Of a DNA stretch of 64,000 nt, positions 3,380-49,938 are shown piece after piece. The stretch comes from a virus: positions 39,174 through 103,173 of the IMG/VR virus record IMGVR_UViG_3300008255_000114, one strand, 5' to 3'. A program made the position numbers and the translations under genes. Under the pieces are notes generated by a model. It was not told the DNA's origin, did no database searches, and worked only from the letters and a program-made list of their open reading frames with translations. Positions within the stretch are counted from its first letter, which is position 1. The number at the start of each line of letters is the position of its first letter.

Positions 3380-4200
3380 AATTTGATAACACAACAGCAA
3401 ACCCGTTTAATTGGGTTGGAAGTAAATTTAGATATTTAAAAGACTTCTTAGAAGTTCTTCCAAAAGAGGAAAATATAAAAGTATTGGATTGCTTCTTGGG
3501 AGGAGGGGATTTAATATCAAAACTCCCGACTTCTTGGTGCATAACAGGAATAGATATAATACCCCAGTTAATTGAGATGCACAAGGCTATACAGGAAGGA
3601 ACACTTAACGTCAGTGGAGTACAAGAAGAATTTATTAAAAGGTCTATGTCAAAAGAAAATGAAATTGCATACTTGAAACTTAGAGATGATTATAATGCAT
3701 CAAACAATCCACAAGACTTATACCTCTTGATGACCAACTCTTTTAATAACCAACTTAGGTTTAATAGAAGTGGGGGATTCAATATGCCATTTGGTAAAAA
3801 CCGTAGTAGTTTTAACCCTAAAATGCAAGCAAAACTTACAAATTACAAAAACGCTATAGCAGAAAGAGTTGTAAATTTTAAATGTGGATCTTATATAGAG
3901 GAAGACTTAAACAGTTATGATTTACTTTTAGTAGATCCACCATACCTAAATACTACTGCGACTTATAATGAGCAAGGTGGATGGAGCAAGGAGGATGACA
4001 TAAGTCTATTACAAAATTTAGACAATTATAAAGGGAAATTTATATACTTTAACCAACTAGTAAGTAAGGGTGTAGAAAATACTAATTTACTGGAGTGGGC
4101 TAATAAGTACCACACTAAAGTACTACAGGATACAACCAAAAACTGCAATCATCAACGTAAAGGTGGGACTACGGTTGAAGTTATGATTACTAATTTCTAA
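3376..4200 (+). CDS. dam: DNA adenine methyltransferase (Dam/D12 family)
   Basis: PFNWVGSK, DCFLGGG, RFNRSGGFNMPFG and DPPY motifs. Confidence 0.92.
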   Translation: MKFDNTTANPFNWVGSKFRYLKDFLEVLPKEENIKVLDCFLGGGDLISKLPTSWCITGIDIIPQLIEMHKAIQEGTLNVSGVQEEFIKRSMSKENEIAYLKLRDDYNASNNPQDLYLLMTNSFNNQLRFNRSGGFNMPFGKNRSSFNPKMQAKLTNYKNAIAERVVNFKCGSYIEEDLNSYDLLLVDPPYLNTTATYNEQGGWSKEDDISLLQNLDNYKGKFIYFNQLVSKGVENTNLLEWANKYHTKVLQDTTKNCNHQRKGGTTVEVMITNF

Positions 4201-4286
4201 TTCCTCAAATTAACACGGATAGTAGGTTGCTTAGAGGGAGTTAATCTACTATAATAACTATTCAACTGTAAAAGAAGAGGTGTAAT

Positions 4287-4529
4287 TTGATTTATGTAGA
4301 GAATAGAAAGCCAGTGGTACCTATTGAATACGAGGGTAGTTTCACACAAGAATTAGGTATTGCCGAAGATAAGTGGCAAGATACTTCTGACATGGAAATC
4401 TACCAATTATTGGGTTACAAAGGTACAGAGTGGCGACTTAAAATGCAGAATGAACATATCGGTGATGCTATGTGGGACCAGAGTGGGTTCGAGCATACTT
4501 GGTCAGAGTTTGATACGGAAAGTGTATAA
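4287..4529 (+). CDS. hypothetical protein
   Basis: GAGGTG RBS, TTG start. Confidence 0.6.
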   Translation: MIYVENRKPVVPIEYEGSFTQELGIAEDKWQDTSDMEIYQLLGYKGTEWRLKMQNEHIGDAMWDQSGFEHTWSEFDTESV

Positions 4530-4549
4530 TTTAAATAAGGAGAAGTTGG

Positions 4550-6850
4550 TTGAGTAAAATAGTGAATATTATTAAGCGTGATGGAAGTAAAGTACCTTTT
4601 GAACCAGAGAAATTAAATAAGTGGGGTGAGTGGGCTACTAAAGCAGACCTAAGTTGGTCAGAGATTGTATTAGATACCTTAGATAATTTATATGATGGTT
4701 GTTCTACTAAAGATATTCACCAAGCTATGATTAATGCATGTGTAGATAAGAAAAATGAAAAACACCTAGAATTTGCTGCTCGTTTATTACGGGGTGATTT
4801 ATATAAGAAAGTTTACGGTTCTGACAAACCAACTAAATTCTCAAGTAAATACCTACAATTGGTAAAAGAGGGACACTGGCAGGATTTTAATTTAAGTCCA
4901 GAAGATTTGGAAAAATTAGATTCTGTGGTTGACCCAGATATTGATAAGACATACGAGTACACCTCCTTATTACAATTCATAGACAAATACGCATTAAGTA
5001 GATATGTCAAAGGTGTTAAGGTTCCAGTAGAGACACCCCACCTAGCTTTGATGGGGATTGCTTTAACTTTATTTAGAAGTGATAGTTTGTTTCATGTAGA
5101 AAAATTCTATAATATTATTAAATATCGAAAAATTAATATCGCAACACCTATCATGGCTGCAGCACGTACAGGTTTTAATGAGTTTACTTCTTGCTTCCTA
5201 TCTACTGCAGGAGATTCTCTAGGGAGTATTATGGCTGGAACTAACCTAGCATATACTATGACAGCTAACCGAAGTGGTGTTGGTTTTGAGTTCGATATCC
5301 GATCTCATGGGGATGTAGTAGGTAACAATAAATGTAAACATGCTGGTAAGTTACCTCATTATGAAATGCTACTAAAGACTATTAAGTCAGTCACACAAGG
5401 TGTTCGTGGTGGTGCTGGTACAGTATACTTTAATGTATTAGACCCAGAGTTTGATGATCTGGTCAGATTAAAAAGTCCTACCACACCATTAAGTAAACGT
5501 ATTGAATTAATGGACTACTCTTTGATGTGGAATAATGATTTCCTCTCACGAGTAGCTAAGAATGAAGATTGGTTATTAGTCAGTAAAGTTGATAAACCTT
5601 TATTACACGAGGCTTTCTATAATAACCGAAGTGAATTCCCTAAGTTAATGGAAGAAGCGCTTAATGAACATAGTAGAAAACCTTCAATCAGTGACTTACT
5701 TAAACCAGACTTTATTGCAATAAAATCAACTGGAAAAGGTAAGGTAGTTAATGCCAGAGATATGTTTAAAGTATTCTTACAGCAAAGACAAGAAACTGGA
5801 CGTATCTATTGTGGTAATGTTGATACACTAAACGACCATACACCTTATAGTGAAGATGTTATCAGAATGTTAAATTTATGTTCAGAGACAGCACTACCTA
5901 CGCGAGGATTTAAAGGTGTGGAATCACTAAATAAACCCGTCCGCAAAGATGATGGTTTGGTAGGGTTATGTTTCCTACTAGCAACAGACTACGGTAAATG
6001 TGAAGAACATGAGGTTGATGAGGTTAACTATTATGCATGTAGAGCGTTAGATAATATTATCAGCATGACATCCTACCCATACAAAACCTTAGAAGATGTT
6101 GGCCTAAACTACCGCAGTATTGGGGTTGGTATTACAAACCTTGCGTATGTAATGGCAAAGAATAAGGTGCTTTACTCGTCTGAAGAAGGTCGTAACTTTA
6201 TTCATCGGTTAGCAGAAAGACACCAGTTCTCTTTATATAAAGCTAGTGTTTCATTGGCTAAAGAACGAGGTAAATTTGGTTGGTTTGATAAAACTAAATT
6301 TGCTAAAGGGTTAATGTGTGTTGATACTTACACAAAAGAAATTGATAAGCACCACTCTCAAGATCTATTGTGCGACTGGGATGGGTTGCGAAAAGAAATA
6401 AATAAATATGGACTAAGGTTCTCCACAAAAAGTGCCCATATGCCGTGCGAGTCTTCATCGGCGTGGGGTTATAGCACTAATGGTTTGTATCCAGTTAGAC
6501 AAGGTGTGCTGATGAAGTCTCGTCCAGAGGGATTGGTACCGTTCTTTGCACCTGAATATGAGAAGTATAAAGAATTCTACGAATTGGCTTGGGATATTAA
6601 TACACAAGATTTATACAAGGTGTATGGTATTATACAAAAGTTCACTTGCCAAAGTATTAGTGCCGATACCTATGTAGACTTTTCTAAACTAGAAAACGGG
6701 AAGGTTCAGATGAGTACAATGATGAAAGATATGCTATTCAGTATGAAGATTGGAATGAAGTCACATTATTACTCTAACTCTAAAACAGAAGATAAAACAG
6801 AATCTGGAAGTAAAGAAACAGACGCAGATTGTGACTCGTGTAAATTATAG
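4550..6850 (+). CDS. nrdA: ribonucleotide reductase class Ia, alpha subunit
   Basis: N-terminal ATP cone (IIKRDG), ATPIM, TSCF, QG.RGGA, NLCSE, MPCESSS and C-terminal CDSC. Confidence 0.96.
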   Translation: MSKIVNIIKRDGSKVPFEPEKLNKWGEWATKADLSWSEIVLDTLDNLYDGCSTKDIHQAMINACVDKKNEKHLEFAARLLRGDLYKKVYGSDKPTKFSSKYLQLVKEGHWQDFNLSPEDLEKLDSVVDPDIDKTYEYTSLLQFIDKYALSRYVKGVKVPVETPHLALMGIALTLFRSDSLFHVEKFYNIIKYRKINIATPIMAAARTGFNEFTSCFLSTAGDSLGSIMAGTNLAYTMTANRSGVGFEFDIRSHGDVVGNNKCKHAGKLPHYEMLLKTIKSVTQGVRGGAGTVYFNVLDPEFDDLVRLKSPTTPLSKRIELMDYSLMWNNDFLSRVAKNEDWLLVSKVDKPLLHEAFYNNRSEFPKLMEEALNEHSRKPSISDLLKPDFIAIKSTGKGKVVNARDMFKVFLQQRQETGRIYCGNVDTLNDHTPYSEDVIRMLNLCSETALPTRGFKGVESLNKPVRKDDGLVGLCFLLATDYGKCEEHEVDEVNYYACRALDNIISMTSYPYKTLEDVGLNYRSIGVGITNLAYVMAKNKVLYSSEEGRNFIHRLAERHQFSLYKASVSLAKERGKFGWFDKTKFAKGLMCVDTYTKEIDKHHSQDLLCDWDGLRKEINKYGLRFSTKSAHMPCESSSAWGYSTNGLYPVRQGVLMKSRPEGLVPFFAPEYEKYKEFYELAWDINTQDLYKVYGIIQKFTCQSISADTYVDFSKLENGKVQMSTMMKDMLFSMKIGMKSHYYSNSKTEDKTESGSKETDADCDSCKL

Positions 6851-44432: not shown

Positions 44433-47400
44433 ATGAAAATAACGTGGGATATAGAAGCTAACGGTCTTTTAAACGACACTACCGTAGATTACCTATCTTC
44501 ACCTTATAAACTTAAGGCAAGCTTCAAGATGCATTGCATTGTAGTTGAGATTGTAGATACAGGCGAGATTATTGCATTCGCTGACGGGCAGGACTACGTA
44601 TTTGATGGACGGAGGTATGAAGAGTATGATCCAGTGACTGACAATACATACATATTAGAGGCTGGGTACCCAGTGATAACCTATACAAGAAAACCTCTGT
44701 CTGATTTTAAGGTATGGGTGAATGCTGCAAAGCCTTCAGTAGTTATTGCACAAAACTCTATCAATTATGACCACCTAGTTACCAAACTCTACTATGGTAT
44801 GGATTATACAGTAGAGCCTGACACTTGGGACAACCTACCACTAGAGATCTATGATACTATGGTAATGTCTAAGGTATTGAATCCAGATAGGTTTGGTGGC
44901 CATAGTCTTGACAATCTAGGGAAGAAGGTAGGTTTGCATAAGATAGAATTCAGAAAGCACTTACCAGTTGATATAAGATTCGAATTCTATGCAGCAGACA
45001 TGTTGTATTACTGTATTAGGGACGTTCAGGTTAATACCAAAGTATACCATATGTTGGAAAAAGAGCGACTTGGTTGGGACTGGAACGAAGCTATTAAGTT
45101 GGAGAAAGCAGTAGCAGAGATTATAACTAAAGGGGAGCATAGGGGTTTTTGGTTTGATAGAGAGTTGGCAGAGAAGTCTATTATAGACCTTGATGCTAAG
45201 TTACAGGAGCGCAGAGAGACCGTAGAACCTCTGCTTCCGCCTAAGCCAGCAACTAAGAAGTTCCTTAATGATCATACACCTCCAAAAAATCAGTTTAAGA
45301 AGAATGGGGAGTATGCAGCCAACCTTATAAAGTTTGTAGATAAGTTAGGCGGTACATTAGAAGGTAGAGTTGCAACATTATTAGGTAAGAAATACGACCT
45401 ACCATTAAAAGAAGGTGAGGCTATAGCGACACACATGGCTGCTACTATTGATGATGCTACTTGGATAAAAGAGTGGTTAGTGGGTATGGGTTGGGTCCCT
45501 AGTGAATGGAAAGAAAAAGATATTACTGTTAACTCTAAGAAGGAGAAGTTAGATGGAGACAAGTATGAGGCTTCTGTTGACCGTTATGTATATCAATCGT
45601 TAGCATCTAACTTCTGCTCAGAACGTTGTGACCACCTCAAGACCTCTAGAAGTAAGCTTAAGGGAGTCTTAATGAATCACGATAGATCTAGACCCCTTAA
45701 GGTACTTACTAACCCCAACTTCACAAAAGGCCAAGAAAAAGAGATGTGTCCTAACTTGGAGTTACTATTTGATAAGTTCCCCTATGCTAAACTGTGCGTT
45801 GAGTATCTGACATACAAACACAGACGAAATAGTATATTAGGTGGAGGTCTAGGTTGGGATGAAGAAGAGGAGGCAGAGAAAGGTTACATGGCTCATGTGA
45901 GGTCAGATGGACGTATACCTACACCTGCTGGTACTTGCGATGCAGGCAGTACTAGGTTTAAACATAGGATTGTTGCCAATATACCTAGGGTTACTTCGTT
46001 GTATGGTGATGTTATGAGGTCGCTGTTTGGGACTGATGGTAGGACATTCCAAATGGGGTATGACTTTGATTCTCTTGAGGCTAAAATAGAATCACATTAC
46101 GTGTTTAGATATAAGGGCGGCAAGAAGTATGGCGAAAGCCTTACTGCTGCTAAGCCTAATGATTGTCATACTGTGTTAGCTGAAAAGATCTCAGCTCAGC
46201 TAGGGTATAAATTCCCCAGAGGTAGTGCTAAATCCGTTAAGTACGGTTGTCTACCTATTGATAATACTGAGATACTTACAGAGTATGGGTGGATATCTTT
46301 TAATGATTTTAACAGTAATATTAAAGTGTTTGGGTACGATGCAGAGCGTAAGGTATTAGACTTATGTGATGTAGTAGAAACACATAAGTTTGATGGTGCA
46401 GAAGTAGTCGATAAGGGGCACTCTAGGTGGCACCTAGAGAGTACTTTAGATCACAGATGGTATGGTCAAAGATTAAAGCAGTATGGGAAGACGAGCGGCA
46501 GTCATGTCAAAGTATGGGAAGATTCAGTTTCTAGTACAGAGGATTTAAAGCAGACCTTCCACATACTTAATACAGCAGAATATTTAAGCGGATCTTCTGC
46601 TGTAACAAAAGACGAGGCTGAGTTTGTAGGTTGGTTACTGTCAGACGGCTACTATAAGTGGAGTGAGAATAAAGATATAACATCAGCGTCCTTTGGTAGG
46701 CGTAAAGGTATCATCTCTGTTATCGCTCAATCTGTAGGTAAGTATTGGAAAGAACTTGAACTGAACCTAAACAGCTTAGGGTTAGGTTACTCTAGGGATC
46801 TGGAGTACAAGGATAACGGAAATCACGTATATAAATACAGAGTGTCCAGTCCAGACCTAAGAGCACTATTAGATAGGGTTGTTGGGAGTAGAGAACAAAA
46901 ACATGATGTAGATTGGTGTAAGTGGGTTATAGGTCTAAGTCAGGAAGCTAGATTAGCATTCCTACATTCCTTCTGGTTAGCTGATGGTAACACTAAAAAA
47001 TCTGCTGCTGATTCGAGTTATAAAATATACAAGCAAAATGTAGGTAATATTAGGGATGCACTTATGTTGGCTGGCTTCTTATGCGGGTATAACGTCTCTG
47101 AATCAAAAGTAGGTAAATGTGGTGCTGTGCGTTTCCAAACGAAACGAGACTACACTACAACTCAAGAGTTTAGAGACTTCTCTTATCGCACTACTGATGT
47201 ATTTTGCCTAACTACCACTTTAGATACTTTTGTTATTAGGCAAAATGGTGTTGTTACTATAACTGGCAATTGCTCTTATAATGCACAGCCCCCTAGGGTA
47301 GCTAAGACTATCGGTTGTAGTTTAAAGGATGCTCAAATTGTGTTTAACATGTTCTGGCAAGAGGCCTCTTGTCTGAAGGATCTTAAAGAGAAGATGCAAA

Positions 47401-47912
47401 AGTACTGGGAAACAACAGGACAAAAACGCTTCTTATTGAGCATAGACGGTAGAAAGTTGCCAGTAAGATCGAAAGGTAATGTGATTAATACTGCGTTCCA
47501 GAGTGCTGGTGTTATTTGTGCTAAACGTGCTATGGTATTACACGACAGGAAACTAAAGGCAAACGGTATCAGTGTAGACTTCTTCAAAGATGACTGGAAG
47601 AAAAAAAGCTATTGTTTTCAGATGGTTGCGTATCATGATGAAGCCCAATGTGAAGTTACTAGAGATCTTATTGAGTTTAAGACGTTTGATACAGAACAGG
47701 AGTGTGCCGACTTCAAATCCACACAGGAGTCTAGCACAGATAAGATATGGGGTGACGTTAAGGAAGGTAAGGGTGGCAAGTTCTTCACGTCTTATTCCTT
47801 AGCTGGTCAGCTAGCAGCAGAAGCAGTTAAAGAAAGTGGAGAGTATTACAAGCTTAATGTCGAACTTACGGCAGGTTACATGTTTGGACGTAACTGGAAG
47901 GATTGTCACTAG
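44433..47912 (+). CDS. family A DNA polymerase with 3'-5' exonuclease domain and an intein
   Basis: WDIEANGL, NYD, YDT and RDV (exonuclease); NIPR, GYDFDSLE (motif A), R..AKSVKYG (motif B), NTAFQSAG and YHDE (motif C). Confidence 0.95.
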   Translation: MKITWDIEANGLLNDTTVDYLSSPYKLKASFKMHCIVVEIVDTGEIIAFADGQDYVFDGRRYEEYDPVTDNTYILEAGYPVITYTRKPLSDFKVWVNAAKPSVVIAQNSINYDHLVTKLYYGMDYTVEPDTWDNLPLEIYDTMVMSKVLNPDRFGGHSLDNLGKKVGLHKIEFRKHLPVDIRFEFYAADMLYYCIRDVQVNTKVYHMLEKERLGWDWNEAIKLEKAVAEIITKGEHRGFWFDRELAEKSIIDLDAKLQERRETVEPLLPPKPATKKFLNDHTPPKNQFKKNGEYAANLIKFVDKLGGTLEGRVATLLGKKYDLPLKEGEAIATHMAATIDDATWIKEWLVGMGWVPSEWKEKDITVNSKKEKLDGDKYEASVDRYVYQSLASNFCSERCDHLKTSRSKLKGVLMNHDRSRPLKVLTNPNFTKGQEKEMCPNLELLFDKFPYAKLCVEYLTYKHRRNSILGGGLGWDEEEEAEKGYMAHVRSDGRIPTPAGTCDAGSTRFKHRIVANIPRVTSLYGDVMRSLFGTDGRTFQMGYDFDSLEAKIESHYVFRYKGGKKYGESLTAAKPNDCHTVLAEKISAQLGYKFPRGSAKSVKYGCLPIDNTEILTEYGWISFNDFNSNIKVFGYDAERKVLDLCDVVETHKFDGAEVVDKGHSRWHLESTLDHRWYGQRLKQYGKTSGSHVKVWEDSVSSTEDLKQTFHILNTAEYLSGSSAVTKDEAEFVGWLLSDGYYKWSENKDITSASFGRRKGIISVIAQSVGKYWKELELNLNSLGLGYSRDLEYKDNGNHVYKYRVSSPDLRALLDRVVGSREQKHDVDWCKWVIGLSQEARLAFLHSFWLADGNTKKSAADSSYKIYKQNVGNIRDALMLAGFLCGYNVSESKVGKCGAVRFQTKRDYTTTQEFRDFSYRTTDVFCLTTTLDTFVIRQNGVVTITGNCSYNAQPPRVAKTIGCSLKDAQIVFNMFWQEASCLKDLKEKMQKYWETTGQKRFLLSIDGRKLPVRSKGNVINTAFQSAGVICAKRAMVLHDRKLKANGISVDFFKDDWKKKSYCFQMVAYHDEAQCEVTRDLIEFKTFDTEQECADFKSTQESSTDKIWGDVKEGKGGKFFTSYSLAGQLAAEAVKESGEYYKLNVELTAGYMFGRNWKDCH
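46248..47270 (+). mobile_element. 341-aa intein with LAGLIDADG homing endonuclease in polymerase motif B
   Basis: KYG|CLPIDNTEILTEYGW ... DVFCLTT...FVIRQNG..TITGN|CSY; internal FVGWLLSDG and FLHSFWLADG. Confidence 0.92.
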
Positions 47913-47964: not shown

Positions 47965-49104
47965 ATGAGTTTTAATTTTAAAGTTGGAGACAGAGTTACA
48001 AGTGTCTGCGGCAGTATGAGTGGTGTGCTAATATCAATAGACCACAGACATAATCGATGTAAGGTTTTATTTGATAACGGAAGGGATAGGAATTACAGTA
48101 AAGCCGCAATAGAATCTGGAGAAATAGATGACAAACCTTACCAAAAAATAAAAGCAGGTGATAAATTTAATACTAATAAATATGGGGTGGTTACAGTTAA
48201 AGCTTACCTAAGTACTTATAAGATTACTATAGAATTTAAAGATGGTGTGACTAGTTCCACAACAGCGTCTAGTCTAAGATTAGGTAACGTTGGTCACCCT
48301 ATGAGCGGCTTGTATATTGGCTTTGAGTTTACTAACAGTGATGGTTGTACTGGTAAAGTTATTAGATTTAACTCACCATACGATGTAGATGTAGAGTGGT
48401 TTGGTGGTGTGGTAACTAAAGGTCATGCTGCAGCCCATATAAAGTTTGGTGGTGTTTACTACCCAAATTATAAATCTGTTTGTGGTGTGGGTTACTTTGG
48501 TATTGGAGATTATATTTCCGATAAGAGTGGTAAGACGGGGAATTATAATAAAAGAGTATATGGCTCATGGTGTAGGATGTTAGGTCGGTGCTATGATCCT
48601 AAAGAACAAATGAAACCTAAAGGTAGATCTTATATTGGAGTTACTGTTTGCGAGGAATGGCACTGTTTTCAAAACTTTGCTAAGTGGGCAAGTGATAAAG
48701 AAGACAAATTTATCGTAGGTTTTGAGTTGGATAAGGATATGTTTGGTGATGGATTATCATATTCACCTGATAATTGCACATTACTCCCTGCTAGTATTAA
48801 TAGTTTTCTCTCAGAATGCGGCACTACTAAAGTATCAGGGCTGCCAGATGGTGTAAATATAGTTAAGCCTAAGAAGGGTACAAACGCTACTGTGGGTTAT
48901 ATTGCTAGGTGCCATATTGATAATGTAAGGCAATACTTAGGTTTCTATAAGACTCCAGAAGAAGCTGCAGAAGTATATAAGGTTGCCAAGGAAAGCGAAG
49001 CTCTTAGGTTAGCTGACAAGTTTAAGTCGGTTCTCAGTACAGAAGAATATAATAAACTTGTTAATTTTACTTTATCAGATATACATAGAAAGAAAGATAA
49101 GTAA
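47965..49104 (+). CDS. putative HNH-type homing endonuclease with repeated N-terminal beta domains
   Basis: WCRMLGRCY, YIGVTVCEEW..FQNF and LDKD...YSPDNC. Confidence 0.75.
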   Translation: MSFNFKVGDRVTSVCGSMSGVLISIDHRHNRCKVLFDNGRDRNYSKAAIESGEIDDKPYQKIKAGDKFNTNKYGVVTVKAYLSTYKITIEFKDGVTSSTTASSLRLGNVGHPMSGLYIGFEFTNSDGCTGKVIRFNSPYDVDVEWFGGVVTKGHAAAHIKFGGVYYPNYKSVCGVGYFGIGDYISDKSGKTGNYNKRVYGSWCRMLGRCYDPKEQMKPKGRSYIGVTVCEEWHCFQNFAKWASDKEDKFIVGFELDKDMFGDGLSYSPDNCTLLPASINSFLSECGTTKVSGLPDGVNIVKPKKGTNATVGYIARCHIDNVRQYLGFYKTPEEAAEVYKVAKESEALRLADKFKSVLSTEEYNKLVNFTLSDIHRKKDK

Positions 49105-49105
49105 C

Positions 49106-49164
49106 TTGACACCTCCACTTCCATCCCCTATAATCTCCGTATCTTAATTGCTACGGAGATTTTT
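49106..49164 (+). promoter_or_regulatory. consensus sigma70 promoter followed by a hairpin
   Basis: TTGACA-N17-TATAAT, then ATCTCCGTA...TACGGAGAT-TTTT. Confidence 0.75.
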
Positions 49165-49167
49165 ATT

Positions 49168-49455
49168 ATGAAAATATCACCATCTGAAATTATATTAACT
49201 CTTGTAATATTATCAGTCCTATTCTACACTGGAGTTACACGTTACCAATCTTCACTTGTGACACCATCTACATTACCCACTTGTACTGTGACTGACAACT
49301 TAGTCACTCTGTACAATAAAAATTACACTAATGCTAAATTAAAGTTGACATGTGGTAATGAAGTGTTTACTATTGACGGATTGAATGTAGGAAGAATTGT
49401 GTATAAACAAAACCGTAGAGTTTTAGGTTTGAAACATGCACCTGATGATAAATAA
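49168..49455 (+). CDS. membrane-anchored hypothetical protein
   Basis: N-terminal hydrophobic helix. Confidence 0.6.
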   Translation: MKISPSEIILTLVILSVLFYTGVTRYQSSLVTPSTLPTCTVTDNLVTLYNKNYTNAKLKLTCGNEVFTIDGLNVGRIVYKQNRRVLGLKHAPDDK

Positions 49456-49557
49456 CTGGAGGTACAAATATGAAAATTAAAGATATCATTGCTAACTTGG
49501 ATAAGTCTGAAGCTAATATGGATGATAGTGTTAAATTCTACAATACATGGAGAGGTT

Positions 49558-49938
49558 ATGAAGACTAAAGTACTCTTACTTGGTTCTGGTGACGAACCTT
49601 CTGTATTCCACAGTAGAATTATTGACACACTACAACATAGCCCTGAACATTTAATTATTTATATTAACCAAGATACTGTTGACACGATTAAAGGTTTAGA
49701 TTATGATTGTGTCATCTTAGATGAACTCGTAGACTTAGGGTGTATTGAACAAGCTCGTGGTATTACTATTAAGAGTGATAATGTAAATGTTGGTACCATA
49801 GGTCATCCTGATTGGTATTATGATCCTGCACAACTAGTTCAGGTTGATGGTTGTATGGGTATTGCAAATAAAAATTTATCTGGTAAGATAGTCGACACTA
49901 AACATAAGAAGCCATTTTATCAGACTGGTAGATGGTAA
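49558..49938 (+). CDS. hypothetical protein containing EF-Tu-like motif fragments
   Basis: GGAGAGG RBS before ATG 49558; EQARGITIK and NVNVGTIGHPD. Confidence 0.65.
   Translation: MKTKVLLLGSGDEPSVFHSRIIDTLQHSPEHLIIYINQDTVDTIKGLDYDCVILDELVDLGCIEQARGITIKSDNVNVGTIGHPDWYYDPAQLVQVDGCMGIANKNLSGKIVDTKHKKPFYQTGRW

Follow-up and report, generated by a model that had tools for sequence, protein, structure and literature searches.

The described systems closest to the locus presented here all involve elongation factor Tu (EF-Tu). The protease Lit cuts EF-Tu between Gly59 and Ile60, but only once the Gol peptide has bound domains II/III (PMC3014915). The type IV Thoeris caspase, a promiscuous Arg-specific protease, cuts it after R45 and R59 (EEKAR|G; 10.1101/2024.10.24.620036), and for Avs7, domains II/III of EF-Tu serve as a structural cofactor (PMC13581612). 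None of these three reads the G1 strand of EF-Tu. We know of no protease that targets this strand. In the native protein, the core of the G domain encloses strand beta-1, the conservation of the G1 strand stems from core packing and GTP binding, and the P-loop and switch I adjoin on the GTP-pocket face.

Here, we describe a small phage protein, P0001, that carries copies of two EF-Tu pieces, one from the G1 strand and one from switch I. Its gene was found in a 64,000-nt stretch of DNA (referred to below as the window) belonging to a 103-kb phage record that is 76% complete; the source is a marine virulent phage, that is, a Shewanella-phage-1/4-like myophage. The features that one needs in order to follow the comparison are these:

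49106..49134, plus strand: sigma-70-type promoter-like site, TTGACA-17-TATAAT, 12/12, a consensus match only
49549..49555, plus strand: ribosome-binding site GGAGAGG, ending 2 nt before the ATG, as read from the sequence
49558..49938, plus strand: gene for the 126-aa P0001, stop codon included, from the ORF list and with a start shared by homologues
49558..49737, plus strand: N-domain, residues 1-60, beta-alpha-beta-beta, from alignments and AF2
49753..49770, plus strand: switch-I-like peptide ARGITI, residues 66-71 (= EF-Tu 57-62), an exact 6-mer and clade-specific
49780..49815, plus strand: G1-like peptide NVNVGTIGHPDW, residues 75-86 (= EF-Tu 11-22, strand beta-1 and the first half of the P-loop), a selected, portable motif
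49900..49935, plus strand: C-terminal basic/aromatic tail KHKKPFYQTGRW, from the alignment, with G-R-W invariant

P0001 starts with MKTK, homologues with 65-94% identity begin at the same Met, and the opposite strand of the ORF holds 32-aa ORFs only. The promoter-like site precedes a 95-aa membrane ORF, a 32-aa ORF, and then the P0001 gene, with which this small run of plus-strand genes ends. The gene is probably transcribed from a host-type promoter, and the promoter consensus by itself would suggest early expression.

A sequence-only reading of this gene had described a small phage protein with rearranged EF-Tu motifs, and the description holds. When P0001 was compared with E. coli EF-Tu (reference sequence taken from NC_000913.3) by BLASTP, residues 75-85 aligned with EF-Tu residues 12-22 (9/11 identical) and residues 64-80 with EF-Tu residues 56-72 (9/17 identical), and the order of the two pieces (ARGITI, then NVNVGTIGHPDW) is reversed with respect to EF-Tu. 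The best 11-mer match between the two proteins has 9 identities, a value that 3000 shuffles of P0001 never reached (at most 7), and they have six exact 5-mers in common, against a shuffle maximum of 2; the resemblance is confirmed to be far beyond chance. The G1 copy is the sole one across the 103-kb record. Four likenesses to EF-Tu had been listed, two of which, ARGITI and the G1 copy, stand. The other two do not: the AQLVQVDG stretch, likened to AAQMDG, is not conserved (the nearest relative, 94% identical, has VQFDD), and the likeness to PGHADY is merely the tail of the G1 copy (GHPDW) and not an independent match. Between P0001 and its closest relative, there are 7 non-synonymous versus 5 synonymous codon differences, H83N inside the G1 motif included.

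Unlike bacterial EF-Tu (tufA/tufB; PF00009, TIGR00485), P0001 possesses no GK[ST]; its loop reads GHPDWYYD, with no equivalents of Gly23, Lys24, and Thr25. The G3 DxxG, G4 NKxD, and G5 motifs are missing as well, as are EF-Tu domains II/III. Judged by its sequence, P0001 is not a GTPase, and the earlier argument that a 126-aa protein with neither a GKT P-loop nor the later G motifs cannot be one was sound. A Pfam search of P0001 returned no match at E<=10. Among 16 family members, PF00009 was matched by one (E 0.18) and the NCBIfam EF-Tu models by six (E about 0.002), via the short motif only. Searches of Pfam, PHROGs, PADLOC, and NCBIfam yielded no family for P0001, and no defence or anti-defence model in them was matched. 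A profile of the P0001 family searched against the PDB found EF-Tu chains only, through ~20 residues at the G1 stretch, and hhalign of the family against EF-Tu aligned 16 columns.

Structure prediction gave weak models, with AF2 reaching a pLDDT of 36.7 with 5 sequences and a mean of 49.4 with 16. In the 16-sequence model, residues 1-55 of the N-domain have a pLDDT of 63-71. The EF-Tu-like motifs lie in a low-confidence segment that is probably flexible, though shallow alignments, rather than disorder, may account for the low values. The best results of a fold search with this weak model were generic flavodoxin-, receiver-, or periplasmic-binding-protein-half matches, with Z at most 4.6 and no G domain listed. 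A scrambled or circularly permuted G domain, in which the N-domain would stand for EF-Tu 100-142 and INQD for NKxD, was considered and is unsupported: the HMMER stretches score only ~2.5 bits, hhalign does not recover the arrangement, and the fold search with the weak model listed no G domain. Searching the ESM Atlas led to unnamed viral clusters only.

Word-indexed and exhaustive profile searches across billions of proteins yielded ~18 members of the P0001 family, all of them from phages or metagenomes and none longer than ~160 aa. A search for longer or fused forms, covering 1587 candidates that have short words in common with the query, found none at E<=10; one candidate homologue, P0015 (2255 aa), proved to be an RCC1-repeat protein and a spurious match. 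In alignments, the family consists of a ~55-residue alpha/beta N-domain (conserved residues G9, P29-E30, Y35, N37, D50, and D55-E56), a variable and poorly modelled linker, and the C-terminal peptide KPFYxKGRW. The family consensus for the tail is KHxKPFYxKGRW, in place of which the Pseudomonas-phage clade has GKGQRKANxxxRW. One should note that Cygsa01_00085, which is annotated as elongation factor Tu, is a true homologue of P0001 (28% identity, same N-domain). The EF-Tu-like pieces are distributed over the family as follows:

Window clade (P0001, P0003-5): ARGITI present, G1 present
P0010: ARGITI present, G1 decayed
P0011, P0012, Shewanella 1/4, Pseudomonas clade: ARGITI absent, G1 present
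P0009, P0013, P0018: ARGITI absent, G1 absent
P0021 (67 aa): ARGITI absent; G1 then tail only

The G1 peptide of P0019 is 12/12 identical to EF-Tu. P0009 is close to the Shewanella 1/4 protein, yet shows a clean deletion of exactly the G1 segment. On this evidence, the middle of the family behaves as a series of cassettes that are gained and lost.

The sequence-only reading had named both RGITI and NVGTIGH as the possible conserved core of the homologues. NVGTIGH is such a core: between the marine and the Pseudomonas-phage clades, identity is 79% in the G1 motif, compared with 27% in the N-domain, 26% in the linker before G1, and 9% in the linker after it. RGITI is not, being confined to the window clade and P0010; neither Shewanella phage 1/4 nor the Pseudomonas-phage clade has it. 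The codons for the G1 peptide differ at synonymous sites among the window, Shewanella phage 1/4, Cygsa01, and E. coli tufA; selection must, therefore, act on the peptide and not on the DNA, and DNA-level mimicry of tuf, or gene conversion with it, was rejected on the same differences.

The C-terminal peptides also occur in other settings. KPFYQKGRW ends a 63-aa ORF (L112:4714-4905, minus strand) that has neither the N-domain nor an EF-Tu motif. GKGQRKANxxNRW ends a protein (L046) in which the G1 peptide is carried on a different N-terminal part and, as GKGQRKANxxNRW[RS], two other small ORFs without the G1 peptide (L119, L121). In these occurrences, both tails behave as portable modules. The C-terminal tail had no match among PDB sequences. 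In nine viral contigs (L114-L118, L120, L122, L124, L125), we also observed a near-identical 25-codon frame ending ...SVGKGQRKANN, which could have arisen by chance within a conserved gene or could be a genuine micro-ORF.

The G1 peptide itself is found far beyond the P0001 family. A degenerate DNA pattern for NVGTIGHxD matched at least 98 IMG/VR loci, compared with ~2 expected by chance (our own estimate). Among the matches listed were ~40 full-length EF-Tu genes on very large contigs and >50 small ORFs; with the motif masked, the small ORFs represent at least 25 mutually unrelated scaffolds, in a census that is biased by the exact pattern used. A metagenome scan for the peptide added two more loci. 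A tblastn search of 50,697 phage records with EF-Tu residues 7-31 as query identified complete cultured phages with the peptide, and the carriers include cultured Vibrio, Erwinia, Pseudomonas, and Aggregatibacter phages. In henriette 12B8, Va2, ChrisDB, Aaphi23, Jeremy, and Cygsa01, the G1 proteins are encoded in early or nucleotide-metabolism regions.

Some of these carriers deserve individual description. VPDG_00052 of Vibrio phage henriette 12B8 (L104:3486-3665), a 59-aa protein annotated as "EF-Tu GTP binding domain protein" and with a relative in NVP3058O_085, is encoded between DHFR and thymidylate synthase; it copies EF-Tu residues about 6-30, with His22 changed to Tyr, and its C-terminal end is GGGKGDRIRRRQQYKHWR. 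Of the members, it would be the most compact to work with. QPB08564 of Vibrio phage Va2 (L106:3489-4076; 195 aa, annotated as "elongation factor Tu") contains INVGTIGHVDHGR and EEKERGITV in the native order, ~30 residues apart, the remainder being unrelated sequence with a Lys/Arg-rich C-terminal tail. Va2 offers an independent scaffold that pairs the same two EF-Tu pieces as P0001. The peptide is also carried by Erwinia jumbo phages (e.g., ChrisDB gp215), by Pseudomonas phage Jeremy, and by the temperate phage Aaphi23, where the carrier, ORF27, is situated in the nin region. The Va2, henriette/NVP3058O, and ChrisDB proteins have the G1 peptide and sometimes a basic tail in common with P0001, and none is a working GTPase; once the motif is masked, their scaffolds are unrelated to P0001 in sequence. 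Their "EF-Tu" names are motif-driven annotations.

Two side observations belong here. In ChrisDB (L107:2351-2830 and 4089-4574), gp215 immediately follows a RimI-like N-acetyltransferase, and a macro-domain (Appr-1-p processing) protein lies three genes further on. A 74-aa ORF of L072 (IMG/VR contig 3300022542_000613) has the G1 peptide near its N-terminus and a C-terminal CPCRSGKKFKKCHG, which we take to resemble the SEC-C zinc motif of SecA.

How much of EF-Tu is kept can be read from the positions left free by the search pattern, which go on matching EF-Tu on one side only:

EF-Tu position 12: Val kept in 22/32 scaffold representatives
EF-Tu position 22: His, Trp, Tyr, or Phe in 31/32 scaffold representatives
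EF-Tu position 23: Gly kept in 22/32 scaffold representatives
EF-Tu position 24: Lys kept in 11/32 scaffold representatives

Several G1 proteins terminate right after position 22, and several independent scaffolds, P0001 among them, have Trp or Tyr in the place of His22. Since Lys24 is usually lost and some of the proteins stop at position 22, the shared element is EF-Tu 12-23 and not the phosphate-binding loop. When 1889 ORFs from 60+ loci were clustered all against all, no phage gene besides the motif proteins co-occurred across the scaffolds, which points to a host partner; a phage-encoded partner was considered and set aside, there being no gene family common to the scaffolds. Full-text searching of the literature found no paper describing these phage EF-Tu peptides.

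What, then, might such a peptide do? The sequence-only reading saw in P0001 a peptide mimic that soaks up Lit-like proteases or EF-Tu-modifying toxins, or that interferes with EF-Tu partners. Its general part, mimicry of EF-Tu, is favoured by the selected NVGTIGH core, while Lit as the specific target is not likely. An ARGITI loop that titrates or inhibits a protease, either a Lit-like one (peptidase U49) or another that attacks switch I, and thereby spares host EF-Tu, is supported by the fact that the window clade reproduces the switch-I region of EF-Tu cut by Gol-Lit and the type IV Thoeris caspase, EEKAR|G|ITI: ARGITI matches both cut sites (G|I for Lit, after Arg for the caspase), it is placed in a probably flexible linker, and Va2 likewise retains ERGITV. 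However, most of the family has no RG|ITI, the scissile sequence that P0001 carries at residues 66-71, and the function common to the family cannot, therefore, be protection from Lit. Lit cleavage requires Gol on EF-Tu domains II/III, and Pfam, the profile search against the PDB, and hhalign detected no similarity to these domains, the Gol-binding surface, in P0001. The Thoeris caspase, for its part, needs a P1 Arg only and degrades many proteins, and a sequence-specific decoy makes little sense against so promiscuous an enzyme. Both proteases leave the conserved element, which is G1, unexplained. We regard a Lit-type decoy as very unlikely, with ARGITI keeping a protease-related reading alive for the window clade. 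Scarcely probable at all, and disfavoured, are a functionless relic of a captured tuf 5' fragment and a copy of the 5' end of tuf of the attP type. Some small viral ORFs (the L013 group, Aaphi23 ORF27) do copy the whole EF-Tu N-terminus from Met1, as capture or an integration-site copy would give. In the P0001 family, however, the motif is internal and the phages are virulent, with their own replication genes, a misfit with any attP or tuf-integration remnant; the peptide has been conserved, with changed codons, across 28%-identical proteins; and the Aaphi23 copy is in the nin region, not at att.

Two further explanations concern what the peptide might bind. It could form an autonomous mini phosphate-loop, a strand and P-loop which, helped by the basic tail, would have nucleotide, polyphosphate, or nucleic acid as direct ligands, the EF-Tu likeness reflecting origin only. 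A preprint (bioRxiv 10.1101/2020.07.30.228619) reports that NTPs and ssDNA/RNA are bound by short, engineered beta-(P-loop)-alpha polypeptides; GK[ST] and the following helix are kept in the henriette, Jeremy, L029, and L094 scaffolds, and about half of the G1 motif proteins end in Arg/Lys-rich tails. An element of this kind would call for an intact Gly-rich loop with Lys and a helix after it, whereas P0001 has PDWYYDP at that place. With the low retention of Lys24 and the proteins that end at position 22 also against it, and with only the EF-Tu flavour seen and no generic Walker A loops, we find this explanation distinctly unlikely. A takeover of translation is unlikely too: here the peptide would disturb EF-Tu folding or assembly (strand competition), or would dock together with the tail at the ribosomal GTPase centre or EF-Ts, and so re-tune translation. 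The position of the P0001 gene among small genes behind a host-type promoter-like site would be consistent with such a role, both GTP-pocket pieces are copied in P0001 and in Va2, in either order, and the basic aromatic tails could bind RNA. Phages, however, depend on EF-Tu, and the tails are not universal among the motif proteins. This explanation also overlaps with mimicry, from which it differs in the target alone.

We tentatively favour molecular mimicry of EF-Tu as quite a possible mode of action for P0001; its target may be an enzyme that serves defence or acts as a toxin, a partner of EF-Tu, or something that senses the unfolded protein. Because the peptide is equally constant on proteins in which it serves neither core packing nor GTP binding, the constraint is most simply "look like EF-Tu", and the selective agent would be the resemblance itself. 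P0001, on this view a non-enzymatic accessory protein, is a mosaic of modules: a small folded N-domain, a probably flexible linker, and, at the C-terminal end, the portable basic tail KPFYxKGRW. Within the linker, ARGITI and then NVGTIGHxD[W/Y/H] would be displayed as linear copies of the nucleotide-pocket face of EF-Tu, and a host factor whose usual ligand or substrate is that part of EF-Tu would be offered this EF-Tu-like peptide instead. The host factor could be a defence or toxin enzyme that targets EF-Tu, or else an EF-Tu partner such as EF-Ts or the ribosomal GTPase centre; it might be blocked, diverted, or recruited, with the N-domain and the tail supplying multimerisation or anchoring.

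The main difficulty for mimicry is the burial of strand beta-1: a reader of the linear peptide must meet unfolded or nascent EF-Tu, or there is no mimicry. EF-Tu is, moreover, extremely abundant, which makes a stoichiometric decoy implausible; only a tight pseudosubstrate, inhibitor, or recruiter would be workable. Also to be counted against mimicry are the codon differences of the closest relative, with H83N inside the motif, the family members that have no G1 motif at all, and the want of any match to a defence or anti-defence model.

A broader proposal, which we consider doubtful, is that the G1 peptide, joined in P0001 by the switch-I peptide, is a portable linear motif that many unrelated phages have grafted onto small early proteins, and that it neutralises or hijacks a widely conserved host factor that reads EF-Tu. 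One candidate for the target is an EF-Tu-directed immune effector or a sensor of nascent/unfolded EF-Tu, and the portable tails (KPFYxKGRW; GKGQRKANxxNRW) would act as a second docking module. An 11-12-residue copy of the most conserved stretch of EF-Tu, selected at the level of the peptide and with or without a switch-I copy beside it, is present on dozens of unrelated proteins of Vibrio, Shewanella, Pseudomonas, Erwinia, and other phages. If the proposal is true, these proteins would constitute a novel type of phage module for counter-defence or takeover, one that mimics the most abundant protein of the cell by means of a linear motif. For eukaryotic viruses, imitating host proteins by short linear motifs is a major strategy; in phages, to our knowledge, it has hardly been documented. 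Knowing the partner could reveal a new EF-Tu-centred host pathway or defence, the recurrent mis-annotation as "elongation factor Tu" would be corrected, and a compact peptide tool would be supplied. We recommend the P0001 family as the entry point, as it provides natural presence/absence variants for each module and has cultured relatives in Shewanella phage 1/4 and Cygsa01.

With regard to its surroundings, the P0001 gene is part of the replication module of the phage, near genes for ribonucleotide reductase, RIIA, a primase-helicase, a family-A DNA polymerase, and an HNH endonuclease; baseplate and tail genes follow this module on the other strand. Shewanella phage 1/4 is the sole cultured relative with synteny, which covers the primase, DNA pol I, two hypothetical genes, and the homologue S14_184. 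On the upstream side of the P0001 gene, the 95-aa ORF (49168-49455, plus strand) has an N-terminal hydrophobic helix and two conserved Cys. It is also found ahead of the EF-Tu-motif gene in L110 (92% identical) and L111 (42%), with no clear counterpart in Shewanella phage 1/4, and may be a partner gene or merely syntenic. In L110, a 129-kb relative, two added ORFs (199 and 183 aa) lie between the 95-aa ORF and the EF-Tu-motif gene.

The HNH endonuclease (47965-49104, plus strand; phrog_953, E 3e-49) is free-standing and located between the polymerase and the run of small genes. The polymerase itself (44433-47912, plus strand) is a 1159-aa family-A DNA polymerase with PHROG matches at residues 3-607 and about 890-1159. 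Between these matches is an unmatched stretch of ~300 residues starting CLPIDN..., an insert that looks like an intein.
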